Shown here piece after piece: positions 32,710-42,694 of a DNA stretch of 64,000 nt (the first letter of the stretch is position 1; the number at the start of each line of letters is the position of its first letter). The stretch is from an uncultured Rubripirellula sp. (GTDB taxonomy: Bacteria; Planctomycetota; Planctomycetia; Pirellulales; Pirellulaceae): positions 25,921 to 89,920 of the forward strand of contig CALKGR010000076.1 in NCBI GenBank assembly GCA_938085445.1, in the 5' to 3' direction. Under the pieces are notes generated by a model that worked only from the letters and a program-made list of their open reading frames with translations, did no database searches and had not been told where the DNA came from. The position numbers and the translations under genes are program-made.

Positions 32710-34674
32710 ATGAATAAGTTTCTTTGTCTGCTCTTGTTTTTAGGTCTATCCGCATGCGGCGATGCCGTGCTTGCGCAGCGAGGATTCGGGGGTGGATTTC
32801 GCGGCGGTTCTGGGGGTGGTGCTCGTGAAAGAATCGCGCCCGAAGATTTGAAATTTGAAATGGGTGTCGCTGGTATACCTGACTTGAGCACGTTTGCAAA
32901 ATTGTCTTATAAGGGCACCGATGTCGGACGGGATCCCTACTTGGCAAACTTGCAGTACGTGAAGTTCCTGATCGAGAACCCAGAGACCGATGAAGCTGCT
33001 TTGTACTTCATGAACACTGGAAATTACCGGGCGCATCCTCCCTACATGGGAATGGTCGGGATGAACAGTCGCGGTGCTATCCGGGGGGCCATTTCTTTTC
33101 AGCCGAGAATGAAAGATGCTGCGGGCGGAGCAGGTCTGTACGTCTTTGATTTTCAGCCAAACGATGCGTTCTCCTTTGAAACGATCAAGTACGTGCGGGA
33201 CACACTGGTCAAGGGAGCCCCATTTCTAAAGGGGCAGTTGGCCTATCATCCACTGCGGGGCGGCATGGCCCGTTACGAAGCTGACAAAGCCAAGTATGAA
33301 GCGTCGGATGTTGCCGTTCACCTCGATGCTGATCTGTACGAAAAAATTGGTTTCTTGCCGCTGAATGGGGGTGAGTCCTTTGGCCGACTACGCGTGATGG
33401 GCAATGAGACACGTTCCTCACCACGTGATATTGTGATTTGTAAAACACTACCAAACCAGATGCCTCGTGTAGCCGGTGTTATCTCTGCAGAGCGGCAAAC
33501 GCCACTTTCGCACGTCAATCTGCGCTGTGTTCAAGATCGTGTTCCAAATGCGTTTGTTGCCAACGCCATGGATCAAGGTGCAATCAGTTCGCTGGTTGGA
33601 AAACTGGTTCGCTATTCCGTCTCTTCTGATGGTTATTCATTGCGTGAAGCTACCAAAGAGGAAGTGGATGATCACTTCAGTAACTCACGCCCCAGCGAAC
33701 CGTTGGTTCCCTCGCGAGACCTTTCGGTAAACGAGATCAAACCTTTACAAGAAATTCGCTTTGAAAATGCTGGCAGCTTTGGTGCAAAGGCATCCAATCT
33801 GGCAACCATGCATACATTTGGTTTCCCCGCAGGCATGATCCCCGAAGGTTATGGGGTCCCATTCGCGTTCTACGATGAGTTCATGAAACAGAATGGATTT
33901 TATGCCAAGGTGGATGCCATGCTCAGCAATCCAGAGTTCCAGCAGGATCGTGAAGTACAGCAGAGCATGCTGAAAGAACTTCGTGGACAGATGAAACAGG
34001 GAACCATGTCCCAAGCAATGCTGGACAGCTTGAAAAAGATTCAGGAATCCTTTTCGCCAGGAACTGCCATTCGATGTCGTTCAAGTACTAACAATGAAGA
34101 TCTGGCGGGTTTCAGTGGCGCCGGCTTGTACGACTCTTTCACGCACAATCCCGATGAAGGGCATCTGGCTAAATCAATCAAGCAGGTGTATGCCAGTCTT
34201 TGGAACTTTCGTGCGTTTGAGGAACGTGATTTTTATCGAGTTGACCACAAGATGACGGCCATGGGGGTTCTGCTGCACCCCAATTACAAGAACGAACGGG
34301 CAAACGGTGTCGTAGTGACCGACGATGTTCTGTATGAATCACAGGGTAACTACTACATCAATACCCAGGTGGGCGAGGATCTGGTCACGAATCCTGACGC
34401 TGAATCCTCTCCTGAGGAAATTCTGCTTGGTTGGTGGAAAGAAGATGGGCACCAAGTGGTGCGACGATCAACCGATGCTGCTGAAAACGAAACGTTACTT
34501 GGAGATAAGCACCTGGCAGATTTACGGGATCGCCTTGCAAAAATTCACGGAAAGTTTCGTAAGCTTTATGGCGAGGGTGAAGATGATCAGTTCGCCATGG
34601 AGGTCGAGTTCAAAATCACGAAAGATGGCAAACTTGTCATCAAACAGGCGCGACCGTGGGTGTTTGCTAACTGA
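32710..34674 (+). CDS. PEP/pyruvate-binding-domain (PPDK_N, ATP-grasp) protein with signal peptide
   Basis: FGAKASNL, IPEGYGVPF, RCRSSTNNEDLAGFSGAGLYDS, IKQVYASLWN and MEVEFK...IKQARP match the PEP-synthase N-terminal ATP-grasp domain; the ORF ends there, with no phospho-His or PEP-binding domain; N-terminal hydrophobic signal ending A-V-L-A. Confidence 0.82.
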   Translation: MNKFLCLLLFLGLSACGDAVLAQRGFGGGFRGGSGGGARERIAPEDLKFEMGVAGIPDLSTFAKLSYKGTDVGRDPYLANLQYVKFLIENPETDEAALYFMNTGNYRAHPPYMGMVGMNSRGAIRGAISFQPRMKDAAGGAGLYVFDFQPNDAFSFETIKYVRDTLVKGAPFLKGQLAYHPLRGGMARYEADKAKYEASDVAVHLDADLYEKIGFLPLNGGESFGRLRVMGNETRSSPRDIVICKTLPNQMPRVAGVISAERQTPLSHVNLRCVQDRVPNAFVANAMDQGAISSLVGKLVRYSVSSDGYSLREATKEEVDDHFSNSRPSEPLVPSRDLSVNEIKPLQEIRFENAGSFGAKASNLATMHTFGFPAGMIPEGYGVPFAFYDEFMKQNGFYAKVDAMLSNPEFQQDREVQQSMLKELRGQMKQGTMSQAMLDSLKKIQESFSPGTAIRCRSSTNNEDLAGFSGAGLYDSFTHNPDEGHLAKSIKQVYASLWNFRAFEERDFYRVDHKMTAMGVLLHPNYKNERANGVVVTDDVLYESQGNYYINTQVGEDLVTNPDAESSPEEILLGWWKEDGHQVVRRSTDAAENETLLGDKHLADLRDRLAKIHGKFRKLYGEGEDDQFAMEVEFKITKDGKLVIKQARPWVFAN

Positions 34675-35101
34675 TCAGTTCGCCCGCCCCAGCCAGCCCT
34701 GCTTACGCTGGACGTTTTGAGTGCATGGCTGGATGCTGTGATGGGCCTTTGTGAGGTCCAAGCCTCAGGTACCAAGTACCGATCTGAAATCGCCTCTGCC
34801 GAACAATTGCTGGAAAGTGGTGTTCAGGGACTTTGCGGTTCTTGTACGCAAAAATCATGCCGCGGGGGCATTTGTTTCAAAATGAAACAAATTGCTCAAA
34901 ATGCGATTTGCAGGGCATGCTGGACACCCGCGTTGGGTCCCGTGTGTATTTGACGTTTGCCCCGCAAAAAACGCGATTTCTCATCTTCATTGGGGACAGC
35001 ATTGTCACGTCATCGCCTGCGGCATCTCACTTGCGTTATACCGCAAGTGAAGTCTTACGTGCTTTGCGCCTTCTTTTGTTTTCCACTTGAGGATCTTGTC
35101 C

Positions 35102-36109
35102 ATGCTTATCGTGAATCATTTGATTCGTTTTGTAGTCTGCGTTCTGTCTGTTGGTGGTAGTGTCGTGCTTGCGGATCCAGCAGTGGACCGCAATACGACC
35201 CGGTCAAACAGGGCTGGCGCCACTGGTGGCGGAAGTGATGTAACCGAGACTGATTTGAACATCAGCAACGATAAGATTGTGCGTAAGAAGCCAGGTCGAC
35301 AGGCCTCGAGTGACATGACGCTGGATTCCGATCTGTCGCAGAGAGGTTCAGGGACAGTCAAGTTTTTTAACAATAGCAAGGGGTTTAGGATCTCAGCATC
35401 GATTCAGGACGGGGCTGGTGACTTACCTGAGACTGATTTGAACATCAGCAACGATAAGATTGTGCGTAAGAGGCCAGGTCGACAGTCCTCGAGTGACATG
35501 ACGCCGGATTCCGATCTGTCGCAGAGAGGTTCAGGGACAGTTGAGTTCTTTAATGATACCAAGGGATTCAGGATCTCAGCAGCAGATCAGGCTAACGTCG
35601 GAACGCTTCGTAACAATGATCCCATTCCCGGAATCGACATCATTGTTGAGAAAGATTCAGTGGTAGATTCTGCAATCGCGAATTCGGTTGTGATGCTCTA
35701 CTACCAGTTGCTGTTGGAAGGTGCCAGCGATTCAGAGGCAATTGAATATGGACTGATTGCTGCCCTGATGGCTGATTCCGATGCGATTGAATACGGATTG
35801 ATTGCCGCTCTCATGGGTGAAGTACCAGAGAATCAACTTGCTGATGCGGACGAAATCATTGTGCGCAAGAAACCCGGTCGCGTGGCAGATACTGCTGAAC
35901 TCAGCGGCGGGCTTGGTGACAATGCCTCCGGCACGCATCGCAAGAACGATCCCATTCCTGAGATCGACGTGATAGTTGAGCGAGATTCAGAGGAGGATCC
36001 TGCGATGTACGATTCACCACTCGTGATGCTCAACGAGATGCTGAAAGCGGGTTACAGTCAAGCCGAGGTCGTTGATTTTGCTTTGGCAACAGGATTACTG
36101 GGAGGTTGA
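35102..36109 (+). CDS. Secreted hypothetical protein made of repeated short motifs (mosaic protein)
   Basis: ~335-aa ORF with signal-peptide-like N-terminus; internal repeats diverge largely at synonymous sites, supporting a real coding sequence; ATG 35102 or TTG 35087. Confidence 0.8.
   Translation: MLIVNHLIRFVVCVLSVGGSVVLADPAVDRNTTRSNRAGATGGGSDVTETDLNISNDKIVRKKPGRQASSDMTLDSDLSQRGSGTVKFFNNSKGFRISASIQDGAGDLPETDLNISNDKIVRKRPGRQSSSDMTPDSDLSQRGSGTVEFFNDTKGFRISAADQANVGTLRNNDPIPGIDIIVEKDSVVDSAIANSVVMLYYQLLLEGASDSEAIEYGLIAALMADSDAIEYGLIAALMGEVPENQLADADEIIVRKKPGRVADTAELSGGLGDNASGTHRKNDPIPEIDVIVERDSEEDPAMYDSPLVMLNEMLKAGYSQAEVVDFALATGLLGG
35246..35581 (+). repeat. In-frame direct repeat, 2 x 153 bp (51 aa), period 183 bp
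   Basis: 35246-35398 and 35429-35581 both begin gagactgatttgaacatcagcaacgataagattgtgcgtaag and end ggatctcagca. Confidence 0.95.
35738..35815 (+). repeat. Tandem 33-bp in-frame repeat encoding AIEYGLIAALM twice (period 45 bp)
   Basis: gcaattgaatatggactgattgctgccctgatg (35738-35770) versus gcgattgaatacggattgattgccgctctcatg (35783-35815). Confidence 0.95.
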
Positions 36110-37601: not shown

Positions 37602-38321
37602 TCACTCGTTCGGAAGCACCGAAGGTCCGATCAGCATCGCGTCACGGCGTGGAAAGTATCCAATTCGGCGATGCCTCATGATTTCATTGCCGATGATGCC
37701 TTCTGAGCCTGCAACCGACAACGACATACCGATCAAAGTCGGCAACTCTCCTGTCTGCAACAGGTACTTTACCTGATCTATTTCAAAGTTGGTTTGGACC
37801 AGTTTTGTTGTGAATTTTCCAAAGCCAGGTAAGAAATCTTCAACCTCTTTCGCTTGTGGGGGTAACGGTTCGTTGAACCTGATCAAGTAACTGTGGGGAG
37901 CACCTGTATCGAAAAACATGGTTTGGGATCGTCCAGCACATGTCACATTCAGAGTCGGAACACCCATGATGTTTCCGATTGCCAGTTCGTTTCCCACTAG
38001 CCCTAGCGAGCTGGCGTCCAGTTCATTTTCGGTGAGCTGCATTGTTTCGGCCTCGATATCCCAAAGGATGTCGTACTCGTTGAGGATGTCTGTGCCAAGC
38101 AATCCCTTGAATTCTACGCCGACAAGATCCGTCAGCGTGGGGATTGAAATTCCCATGTAGGTTGTCGGAACTTCGAAGACCCGCTGGTAACCGTTTTGAT
38201 CGAACGAAAGACGTAGCCCGGGTGAGATGCTGCTCGGGGCTCCCGTGTCCACCAACCATTTACCGTGGGAAGTGTGCATGAACAGGTGCGATTTTTCGTA
38301 GGTCATCTTCATGGTGATCAT
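37602..38321 (-). CDS. Two-lobed retropepsin-like aspartic protease
   Basis: Two DTG motifs (LVDTGA, FFDTGA), each followed by a hydrophobic-hydrophobic-Gly motif (GLLGTD, GIIGNE); start probably ATG 38321, 38312 or 38306; the 106-aa N-terminal extension in the ORF track looks non-coding. Confidence 0.8.
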   Translation of the reverse strand: MITMKMTYEKSHLFMHTSHGKWLVDTGAPSSISPGLRLSFDQNGYQRVFEVPTTYMGISIPTLTDLVGVEFKGLLGTDILNEYDILWDIEAETMQLTENELDASSLGLVGNELAIGNIMGVPTLNVTCAGRSQTMFFDTGAPHSYLIRFNEPLPPQAKEVEDFLPGFGKFTTKLVQTNFEIDQVKYLLQTGELPTLIGMSLSVAGSEGIIGNEIMRHRRIGYFPRRDAMLIGPSVLPNE

Positions 38322-38748
38322 GATCGAGTTCTTTTGGCCTGAGCTGAAGCGTGATTGAAGCGGCTGTTGGAATAGCCAGCACTGACACCATTGTCGCGCA
38401 CGCTCAGGCGTATCCGCGCACGTACGGCCGCCCCCACGCGGGCGTGTTACGCGGGCGTTGGAAAATAAACGTGATTTTTCGAAACGGGCTTGACTGGATT
38501 TTGAGTGCCTCAGGTTTTTTGAGTTCCTCGACGTTTTCGACGATACGCCAGCAACGCCATGGAGTCTTTGTGAGGGCGCCAGTTTGCCCAGCTTCAGCGG
38601 CCTACCAATTCGAGAATTCCTCCGTGATTTTTCTTGCAACTTTGTGAGCGACGCTTAGCATCCATCGCCCGGATCGGCAGGGATGCTAGCAAACGCGATG
38701 GGCGTTGCGTCTGACCGTGAAGGATGACGTTTTCACAAGGTTGAGCAG

Positions 38749-40799: not shown

Positions 40800-41701
40800 G
40801 AATATGTCATCTTGTCTTAAACTTGTGTCCTATCGGTTCCGTTTTTGAGCAACAGAGTCGTATCATCCCTAATCGGATATGACGCTGAGAGCGCGGGGAT
40901 CATCGTGCTTTTCTTGTGAGATTCGACGTTTTTCTGCGGATCGATGGCATTCGCGAGTGGTTGTGATTAGGCACCATCCGTAGCGGCCATAACATGGTTT
41001 CTGCGTCATTGAGTGACTCAGTTGCCTGGGTTTCGAACGAAATGATTTCTACGCCAGTTTCAACCAGAGTATCTTTTGTCGTGTTTCAGGATTTTGAAAC
41101 ACTTGAGTCAATGCGGCTATTGCAATTTGCTTGCTCGGTTGGATTGGCTTGTTTGATCAATGAAGCTGTAGTGCTACCCGCTCAAGTAGCCATTTGAGAG
41201 GCTTGGTTCTGTCAACTTTGCATGATGTGCAATGAATAAGTAGCAGCTCGAGTCTGATGTGCTGCCGAGAAGTGGGGCTGTTGTCAAAGTGGCATTCAAG
41301 GAATGTCTTTTTAGTGCTGAATCGAGGCTTTCTGCAGAAGGTCTGAGGCTTTGTACCGTAAGGCGGAATTGGGCGGCAATGCATAACTGCGCTGCACATT
41401 GATCGACTCGCTTTTGTCACTGATTTCGAGTTTGATGCTTGACGCATGTTTGTTGAGAGCAGGAGACGTGTTTGTGGGAGCGGACATTAGTTCATGATTC
41501 GCTCACCCGCATTTGCAATGGACGTCTTTCCGTAGAAATGTGTGGTTGGACAGCACGACACACAAGAATCAACAATCCTCTAGAAGTCTGCTCGAATCTA
41601 AGGTGACAAATAAAATGAAGCATTGCTGAAAGGTTGCCTCGCGACGCGGGTACCTGTAGTGAGCGTTGGTTCGATTTACTACGAAATACAGGGGTTTCCT
41701 T

Positions 41702-42694
41702 ATGTTCAATAAGTTTTTTTACGGTGGTTCAGCGGTTGCAATTGATCGCAGCAGCTGTCAGAAGAAAAGACGGAAAACGAAACGCATCCCCCAAGTACAA
41801 AACCTTGATCAGCGAGTCGTCTTTGCTTCTGTGTCGTTCGATGCGGAAACGGGAATTGTGATGTTTCAGGAAGATCCAGCAGGTGAAGTCAACAATGTTA
41901 TTGTCAACGGCCCGGCAACGAATTTGACACTGCAGGATCAAGCAGGAATTGATATCGCCCCGGAGTCTGAGCCGTTTTTTACGCGTCTGTCGAACAACAA
42001 GGTAAAACTCAACGAGTTTGTCAACAAGGTTGTCTTGAACACTGGATCGCAGGATGATTTTGTGGGTGCGGGTGGAGCACGCGTTGAGACAGAAATGTTC
42101 CTTGGTGATGGCGATGATCATGTCATTTCTGGTAGCAGAGTCACCGATGTGATTCATGGCCAAGCGGGAAATGACATCATCCGTTCAAGTAGTGGTGATG
42201 ATCTTCTGTACGGTGGTGATGGCGACGATGAGCTATGGGCGGCAGCCGGGGACGATACAATTGAAGGCGGTGCTGGCAACGATATGCTTCGTGGTGGAGG
42301 TGGAAATGATATTCTGCTGGGTGGAGATGGTAATGACATGATTGGGGGGGATCATGGAAATGACGCTCTTCACGGTGGTGCTGGCCACGACAGCCTCAGG
42401 GGCGGTGCTGGGCAGGATGATATGTTCGGTGACGAGGGTTGCGACCTTTTCTTTGCAAGGCTCGCTGGCCGCGATGTCGACGGAAACATCGAGGGTGGTT
42501 CAGGAGCCGATGTCATGTTCTTTTCGGCTCTTGAAGCGACAAATATCGCGAATGACATTGAGATCAACGATGTTGAGGTTGGTCTTGTTGATGCATTTAA
42601 AAAATGCCGTCGCCTCAATTATCGTGACCTGTTCACGTGGGCTGGGCCAGAAAATAGTGGGCATGAAAAATGGACACTCATTCGATCCAGCTAA
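41702..42694 (+). CDS. Calcium-binding protein with hemolysin-type (RTX-like) GGxGxD nonapeptide repeats
   Basis: Run of GGxGND/GGxGxD repeats (~42100-42450); basic N-terminus plus QNLDQRVVFA, a degenerate planctomycete export motif. Confidence 0.85.
   Translation: MFNKFFYGGSAVAIDRSSCQKKRRKTKRIPQVQNLDQRVVFASVSFDAETGIVMFQEDPAGEVNNVIVNGPATNLTLQDQAGIDIAPESEPFFTRLSNNKVKLNEFVNKVVLNTGSQDDFVGAGGARVETEMFLGDGDDHVISGSRVTDVIHGQAGNDIIRSSSGDDLLYGGDGDDELWAAAGDDTIEGGAGNDMLRGGGGNDILLGGDGNDMIGGDHGNDALHGGAGHDSLRGGAGQDDMFGDEGCDLFFARLAGRDVDGNIEGGSGADVMFFSALEATNIANDIEINDVEVGLVDAFKKCRRLNYRDLFTWAGPENSGHEKWTLIRSS

Follow-up and report, generated by a model that had tools for sequence, protein, structure and literature searches.

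The window analysed here is a 64,000-nucleotide stretch of DNA from an uncultured Rubripirellula sp. (contig CALKGR010000076.1), in which positions 35102-36109 of the forward strand form an open reading frame (ORF) whose translation is a 335-aa protein, P0001. Repeated short pieces of unrelated protein families, hereafter modules, are set in its low-complexity background, and we refer to P0001 and its relatives as collage proteins. All motifs listed by the original prediction, which had been made from the DNA letters by a model, were found at their positions in this frame. The mature protein, described there as a Ser/Asp/Gly scaffold, has 11% D, 10% S and 9% G plus 9% A, a net charge of -22 and a pI of 4.4. 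Homologues begin at the ATG; the in-frame TTG at 35087 could serve as start codon instead. The N-terminus, judged by eye, has the Sec-type layout (R9, a 15-residue hydrophobic core and VLA/DP) that was taken for a signal peptide before, and homologues keep the same start; with this predicted signal peptide P0001 would be exported via Sec. The features of the gene are as follows.

35102-36109 including stop, + strand: coding sequence of collage protein P0001; ORF and translation, 71 homologues, ratio of non-synonymous to synonymous substitution rates (dN/dS) 0.12-0.44
35102-35173, + strand: putative Sec signal peptide spanning aa 1-24, with VLA before the cleavage site; sequence reading, conservation in homologues, helix 2-19 in the AlphaFold2 (AF2) model
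35186-35212, + strand: NSRSN module DRNTTRSNR; its consensus recurs in unrelated exported proteins
35246-35581, + strand: 183-nt in-frame tandem duplication, 1.8 copies; Tandem Repeats Finder (TRF) score 595, 92% matches
35270-35299, + strand: tube-derived module copy 1, DKIVRKKPGR; positions 51-70 of a tail-tube hidden Markov model (HMM)
35351-35386, + strand: copy 1 of the module derived from the cold-shock domain (CSD), GTVKFFNNSKGF; Pfam CSD 2-14 of 66, NCBIfam CspE 5-28 of 69
35453-35482, + strand: tube-derived module copy 2, DKIVRKRPGR; tail-tube HMM positions 51-68
35534-35569, + strand: second copy of the CSD-derived module, GTVEFFNDTKGF; also matched by NCBIfam Csp models, as their second stretch
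35615-35656, + strand: PGID module copy 1, NDPIPGIDIIVEKD; same peptide in genuine CarboxypepD_reg domains
35738-35770, + strand: Flp-derived module copy 1, AIEYGLIAALM; Pfam Flp_Fap positions 10-21 of 46
35783-35815, + strand: Flp-derived module copy 2, AIEYGLIAALM; synonymous differences only versus copy 1
35852-35881, + strand: tube-derived module copy 3, EIIVRKKPGR; tail-tube HMM positions 44-62
35945-35986, + strand: PGID module copy 2, NDPIPEIDVIVERD; paired with copy 1 in the 78-nt repeat and almost unchanged throughout the family alignment
36014-36106, + strand: C-terminal helical hairpin, aa 305-335; AF2, nearly invariant across the family

A large share of the repeats within P0001 is plain in-frame duplication, with units of 183, 45 and about 78 nt. 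Each 61-aa unit of the 183-nt repeat holds one tube-derived (PGR) and one CSD-derived module, the 45-nt unit that is present twice at 35729-35820 carries the Flp motif, and a dispersed 78-nt pair at 35599 and 35929 (77% matching) carries the two copies of the PGID pattern NDPIP(G/E)ID(I/V)IVE(K/R)D. Between the Flp copies there are six synonymous and no non-synonymous differences over 11 codons, CSD copy 2 differs from copy 1 by five synonymous and three conservative codon changes, and the codons of tube copy 3 differ from those of copies 1 and 2 at synonymous sites. The C-terminal hairpin region looks paralogous to aa 194-238. A scan for promoters and terminators around the gene gave nothing above shuffled sequences.

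Four module types have traced parents: the tail tube, the CSD, Flp and CarboxypepD_reg. Against Pfam Flp_Fap P0001 scored 29.7 bits (E 5.7e-7) with two stretches at profile positions 10-21 of 46, against Pfam CSD only 12.5 bits, and against NCBIfam CspE it obtained an E-value of 3.7e-5, again with two stretches. For the tube, an HMM was built from 16 genuine PF06841 proteins of 144-175 aa. P0001 reached 27.9 bits in three stretches, all on HMM positions 44-70, whereas 2000 composition-preserving shuffles of its sequence had a mean of -5.8 (sd 4.4) and a maximum of 9.4. The matches to these three parents are beyond chance, and the link between RKxPGR and T4 gp19-type tail tubes, which the original prediction had drawn, is supported. 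Genuine tubes of 143-175 aa read EYQDGDDLILRKRPGRAKYGDITLKKGY, a module that is common to collage proteins at 79-94% identity over 10-13% of the query, and a weak tblastn match (E 3.7) connects a real tube protein with the site of tube module copy 2. For PGID the parent is CarboxypepD_reg: in P0195, P0203 and P0245 the same peptide makes up the first strand of genuine domains of this family. The NSRSN consensus, (D/Y/H)N(S/T)(S/T)RSN, recurs up to eight times per protein in unrelated exported proteins; a search for its parent family found none.

Homologues retain longer pieces. The tube piece, decayed in P0001 to the VRKKPGR core, reads VRKKPGRTTYsnVTL in homologues, and RNP-1, broken in P0001 (KGFRIS), is KGFGF(I/V/T). 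Fifty family members were scanned by Pfam, with Flp_Fap found in 27 (best E 3.3e-27), Phage_T4_gp19 in nine, CSD in eight and T6SS_HCP in two. P0049 scored 43.9 bits against CSD, for which the cut-off is 27, while P0086 and P0080 scored 30.6 and 63.8 bits against PF06841 (cut-off 28.2), always at profile positions 30-64; TIGR02241 was matched at 34-73 of 141 in collage homologues.

P0001 belongs to none of the families that it resembles. It shares with Flp/Fap pilins (PF04964) the family signature AIEYGLIAALM, but the motifs are internal (aa 213-238 of 335), duplicated and behind a Sec signal. There is no N-terminal leader ending in G/XXXXEY followed by a helix of some 20 residues in a protein of 50-90 aa; instead seven residues separate G from EY, and nine hydrophobic residues run into acidic spacer. 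Its score, the sum of two 12-residue stretches, is below the gathering cut-off of 32.2 bits. For a cold-shock protein (PF00313) we required a complete oligonucleotide-binding (OB) fold of 65-70 aa with RNP-1 (KGFGFI) and RNP-2 (VFVHF). The GTVKFFNxxKGF of the collage family corresponds to strands 1-2 up to RNP-1, but the pieces span profile positions 2-14 of 66 in P0001 (2-23 in relatives), RNP-2 and the OB fold are lacking and the protein is predicted to be exported. Likewise, the PGR module corresponds to the strand ...EYQDGDDLILRKRPGRxKYgdITLKKGY... of the tail tubes (PF06841/TIGR02241, related to Hcp), but P0001 keeps about 10-25 of about 140 residues, three times over; the full tube or Hcp domain of some 130-170 aa is absent and Pfam gave no such match. 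The motifs are thus truncated pieces, as had been proposed. A colinear alignment to a single folded family was looked for in Pfam, NCBIfam and PDB and none was found; the PDB sequence search, with P0001 and a tube piece from contig C87 of the same genome, returned chance matches only (ESS-2, E 0.96; Aap G5, E 0.43).

According to AF2 with the family alignment, P0001 is predicted to be mostly disordered, with a mean predicted local distance difference test (pLDDT) score of 39 and residues 22-303 below 50. The only confidently folded part is the C-terminal hairpin (about aa 300-329, pLDDT 63-81), with helices at 306-315 and 320-329, which we take to be UBA-like. The CSD pieces were modelled as short hairpins and the Flp pieces as helices, both with low confidence. 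The model of the Bacteroidota-like P0104 is confident only in a C-terminal CarboxypepD_reg-like piece, its Hcp pieces being in low-confidence stretches.

The family comprises 71 homologues at E <= 0.01, of 200-364 aa and mostly from marine metagenomes; among 1.84 billion proteins there are only 38 family representatives. The gene is present in two of the 25 genomes of the genus and in none of 16 genomes from other families of the order. Compared with three orthologues, modules have dN/dS values of 0.24, 0.12 and 0.18; spacers have 0.44 and 0.37 versus the first two, the third being saturated. Modules are hence under stronger purifying selection than spacers. At the syntenic loci identity ranges from 65 to 91% for the neighbours (85-91% for PPDK_N, 77-90% for the abhydrolase and 65-89% for the aspartic protease) but only from 34 to 70% for the collage protein: the gene is real, selected and evolving far faster than its syntenic neighbours. 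The architecture within the family can be written as NSRSN-(TUBE-CSD)0-3-(PGID)-FLP1-4-TUBE1-5-PGID-Cdom, with one to four Flp, one to five PGR and zero to three CSD modules. The allele of genome G010 (C5) encodes three 61-aa TUBE-CSD units in 396 aa, and the near-identical metagenomic allele P0003 encodes two.

The original prediction asked whether the motif set recurs in other orders and numbers, and it does so both in the homologues and in unrelated proteins. In distant proteins modules lie behind or around Cys-containing folded domains (P0046-P0050, P0055, P0065-P0072), and in P0083 NSRSN and TUBE alternate eight times behind an outer membrane protein (OMP)-like domain. A family of 476-528 aa with a CxxCGxxCxxPCRC motif, found in Mariniblastus and on contig C87 of the genome studied here, also carries modules. 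The C87 member (G000:C87:61694-63187) is a second protein of the producer genome and holds one tube piece, QGDDKVVRKKPGRTTFANITLKRV; some copies of its family are annotated in Mariniblastus. A scan of genome contigs for related loci picked up mainly real Flp genes and, besides them, a single Mariniblastus locus. The giant Planctomycetales-type proteins P0078 (5355 aa) and P0091 (5053 aa) open with the Hcp N-terminal motif. Between their TSP3-like calcium-binding repeats lie tube, Hcp, HU, EF-Tu, kinase-loop, DUF1559-pilin and VgrG-like pieces, and one of the two carries the annotation 'T6SS tube protein Hcp [Planctomycetales bacterium]'. When P0103-P0111 are compared with the real Hcp P0113, pieces from the N-terminus, the middle and the C-terminus of Hcp/TssD are seen in shuffled order. 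In the same way, comparison with the genuine HU P0206 shows that P0127, P0142-P0171 and P0160 carry pieces of the N-terminus of HU with the start Met, of its arm and of its C-terminus. The EF-Tu piece GHVDHGKT of relatives was matched by Pfam GTP_EFTU at E 0.009. A further piece, EEKERGITINTSHVEY, is presumably also from EF-Tu, and others we take to be type IV pilin, kinase-loop-like and VgrG-like. Since one of the carriers bears the label 'uncultured Lutibacter sp.' and the surroundings of P0098 and P0104 look Bacteroidota-like, the phenomenon appears to cross phyla.

Two metagenomic carriers are observed to join collage and genuine sequence. In P0106 (345 aa) the C-terminus becomes genuine Hcp sequence (...EVEYYTIMLERVKVSA) after a shared VDAATPYIYKA piece, which looks like a recombination between a collage gene and a real hcp. 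P0160 (252 aa) is a complete HU split by an insertion of about 140 aa that holds two tail-tube pieces and CPxC motifs.

Could the pieces be passengers, left by illegitimate recombination that inserts gene fragments into tolerant disordered exported proteins, and noticed because conserved motifs are easy to recognise? Rare one-off pieces such as the GHVDHGKT of EF-Tu and the kinase loop would be expected from such largely neutral accretion. The start Met in the HU piece suggests capture at the DNA level, and the apparent hybrid P0106 fits as well. We nevertheless consider accretion of this kind very improbable, since constraint is stronger on modules than on spacers, synonymous changes have accumulated while the encoded peptides stayed identical, and the same five modules recur across phyla.

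Binding of polyanions, either extracellular DNA or sulfated algal polysaccharides, by the basic islands and nucleic-acid-binding pieces (the RNP-1 region of the CSD and, in relatives, HU arms) is an unlikely explanation too. The VRKKPGR core, the only part of the tube piece kept in the P0001 subfamily, presumably fits a Cardin-Weintraub-like pattern (X-B-B-B-X-X-B) and also resembles a reversed AT-hook. The HU arm RTGRNPQTGK is retained in Flavobacteriaceae-like relatives, which are strongly basic (pI 10-10.8), but P0001 is strongly acidic overall and its Flp, PGID and NSRSN modules would be left unexplained. Sulfatase genes are near several loci; such genes are abundant in these genomes and their adjacency therefore means little.

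The comparison of collage loci yielded no conserved partner gene. Upstream of the gene, at 32710-34674 (+), lies a 654-aa ORF with a signal-peptide-like N-terminus, a Gly-rich linker and PPDK_N as its only domain (PF01326, 90.8 bits). The gene for this predicted exported PPDK_N protein is upstream only in close relatives and is missing at the P0026 locus despite the same outer flanks, hence we rejected it as a dedicated maturase; the loci of P0047, P0050, P0054, P0098 and P0104 have unrelated neighbours. The abhydrolase and aspartic-protease genes are likewise neighbours in close relatives only. Such loci offer little to the idea of a multi-core precursor, a polyprotein from which modules are cut out and perhaps modified as secreted signalling or antimicrobial peptides. 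The variable numbers of identical short cores, the acidic spacers and a dibasic KK/KR inside the PGR module do speak for it. However, beside the gene no maturase, protease or transporter is conserved, which also speaks against a ribosomally synthesized and post-translationally modified peptide (RiPP)-like precursor. The same modules occur inside large folded or giant proteins, and five different core types come with no leader or follower logic, which makes a precursor decidedly unlikely.

Two further candidates were rejected. In accordance with the original prediction there is no reverse transcriptase in the window, the only RVT_1 match of the genome is on contig C38, and the repeats are in-frame duplications rather than the template repeat of a retroelement; the gene is thus no target of a diversity-generating retroelement. 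The sequon D/E-x-N-x-S/T is enriched two- to threefold in P0001, mostly via the repeated modules. This enrichment is weak and a match to PF02516 (STT3/PglB-type) is absent from the genome, which is 97% complete, so that a carrier of N-glycans was discarded as well.

The idea that the peptides were captured from abundant proteins of the producer itself was rejected. Its own Csp, GTIKRLTDKGFGFI, and Flp, TAVEYAVMLALIVV (contig C22), differ from the modules and are not their source, and a PF06841, TIGR02241, sheath-type or Hcp gene was not detected in the genome. The collage protein of genome G041 has an Hcp piece that shares 54% identity with a foreign Hcp and 34% with the Hcp of G041 itself. 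Similarity to foreign rather than own proteins suits a molecular mimic or decoy, i.e. an exported scaffold that shows copies of conserved interface-forming peptides of other organisms to trap, cap or distract. The peptides would be copied from tail tubes or Hcp, from pilins of the Flp and type IV kinds, and from CSP or HU after their release, and they would dock on those proteins or on their recognisers, for which assembly partners, receptors, proteases, phages, predators and hosts can be proposed. In many divergent carriers the modules have kept close to the consensus of the parent family, a good number of the pieces come from the N- or C-terminal ends of the parent proteins, and fast evolution combined with patchy distribution fits a conflict gene. 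On the other hand, the cytoplasm is where CSP, HU and EF-Tu reside and where tubes are assembled; P0001 itself has only decayed versions of the tube and CSD pieces; and the foreign similarity could reflect a horizontal origin of the gene. We regard mimicry as possible but doubtful. The same caution applies to its wider form, a widespread exported class in Planctomycetota, Bacteroidota-like bacteria and probably other phyla that might use arrays of signature peptides to mimic foreign tubes and Hcp, Flp and type IV pilins, HU, cold-shock proteins and EF-Tu, so that assembly machines, weapons, phages or receptors belonging to other organisms would be trapped, capped or distracted.

The explanation that we tentatively favour is a multivalent 'stickers-and-spacers' scaffold built from captured protein fragments. 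It starts from the anatomy, the four parentages, the predicted disorder, the selection on modules, the copy-number variation and the combinatorial reuse described above. P0001 would be a Sec-exported, intrinsically disordered 'beads-on-a-string' protein, in which the beads are modules of 9-20 residues that probably descend from the most conserved segments of unrelated proteins, namely a strand of the contractile-tail tube, cold-shock strands 1-2, the N-terminal helix of the Flp pilin and the first strand of CarboxypepD_reg. The acidic Ser/Asp/Gly/Ala spacer would form the string, closed by the small C-terminal helical hairpin. In-frame duplication and recombination would gain, lose, multiply and reorder modules, and the modules have spread into many unrelated exported proteins. 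As strand- or helix-forming pieces already suited to pairing, modules could act as interaction stickers, through which the protein would self-assemble or join partners in the envelope or outside the cell, for instance in a matrix, in adhesion or in a condensate. The sticker-and-spacer layout and the predicted disorder lend indirect support to a possible functional amyloid or self-assembling matrix protein. Module copy number would then set valency, whereas spacers would be free to drift. We favour assembly by strand or helix pairing because it needs no partner gene and explains both the variation in valency and the freedom of the spacers.

Several observations weigh against such a scaffold. 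Simple stickers need no fidelity to the consensus of a parent, yet many modules stay close to it, and they are unlike the Csp and Flp of the producer. Rare pieces in relatives, such as the P-loop of EF-Tu and the catalytic loop of a kinase, would make poor stickers, and the signal peptide on which export hinges was predicted by eye.

Short conserved segments common to unrelated proteins have reportedly been described before as a 'vocabulary of ancient peptides' (by Alva, Söding and Lupas, in 2015) or as 'bridging themes'. Such fragments are ancient and inside folded domains, whereas collage fragments are recent, mobile, multiplied and situated in disordered exported scaffolds. Neither a Pfam nor an NCBIfam model describes the collage proteins and a literature search for the motifs and the concept, within one library of papers, found no description. 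They apparently form an undescribed class, as had been surmised, in marine Planctomycetes and Bacteroidota-like bacteria. The tandem repeat proteins (TRPs) of intracellular pathogens such as Ehrlichia are secreted, acidic, disordered repeat proteins that use type 1 secretion and whose short linear motifs (SLiMs) mimic eukaryotic host motifs (PMC8112483). P0001 is predicted to resemble these SLiM-mimicry effectors in being secreted, acidic, disordered and repetitive, but collage motifs are copied from proteins of bacteria and phages, occur in marine bacteria with a free-living habit, and would act by mimicry only conjecturally.

If the class is real, sub-domain fragments of conserved proteins are mobile and selectable units in bacteria, which amounts to exon-shuffling without exons, and short linear motifs would gain a role in free-living bacteria. 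Should the modules mimic tubes, Hcp or pilins, they would represent a new extracellular interference with phages, tailocins, type VI secretion or pili. The class also holds a warning for annotation, since matches of 12-30 residues yield names such as 'Flp pilin', 'nucleoid DNA-binding protein' and 'T6SS tube protein Hcp'.

A few other genes in the window deserve mention. A giant ORF of 6806 aa at 11900-32320 (+) ends about 400 bp before the PPDK_N gene. At 37602-38639 (-) an ORF without evident signal peptide contains two DTGA motifs and a weak RVP (retropepsin) match of 22.1 bits, which suggests a putative single-chain, two-lobed aspartic protease. This gene and the collage gene run towards each other, and the synteny extends to related genomes, the P0026 locus among them; since the arrangement is convergent and the synteny is confined to related genomes, we draw no functional link. 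Further downstream, at 41666-42694 (+), a 342-aa protein has RTX calcium-binding nonapeptide repeats (PF00353, 75 bits).

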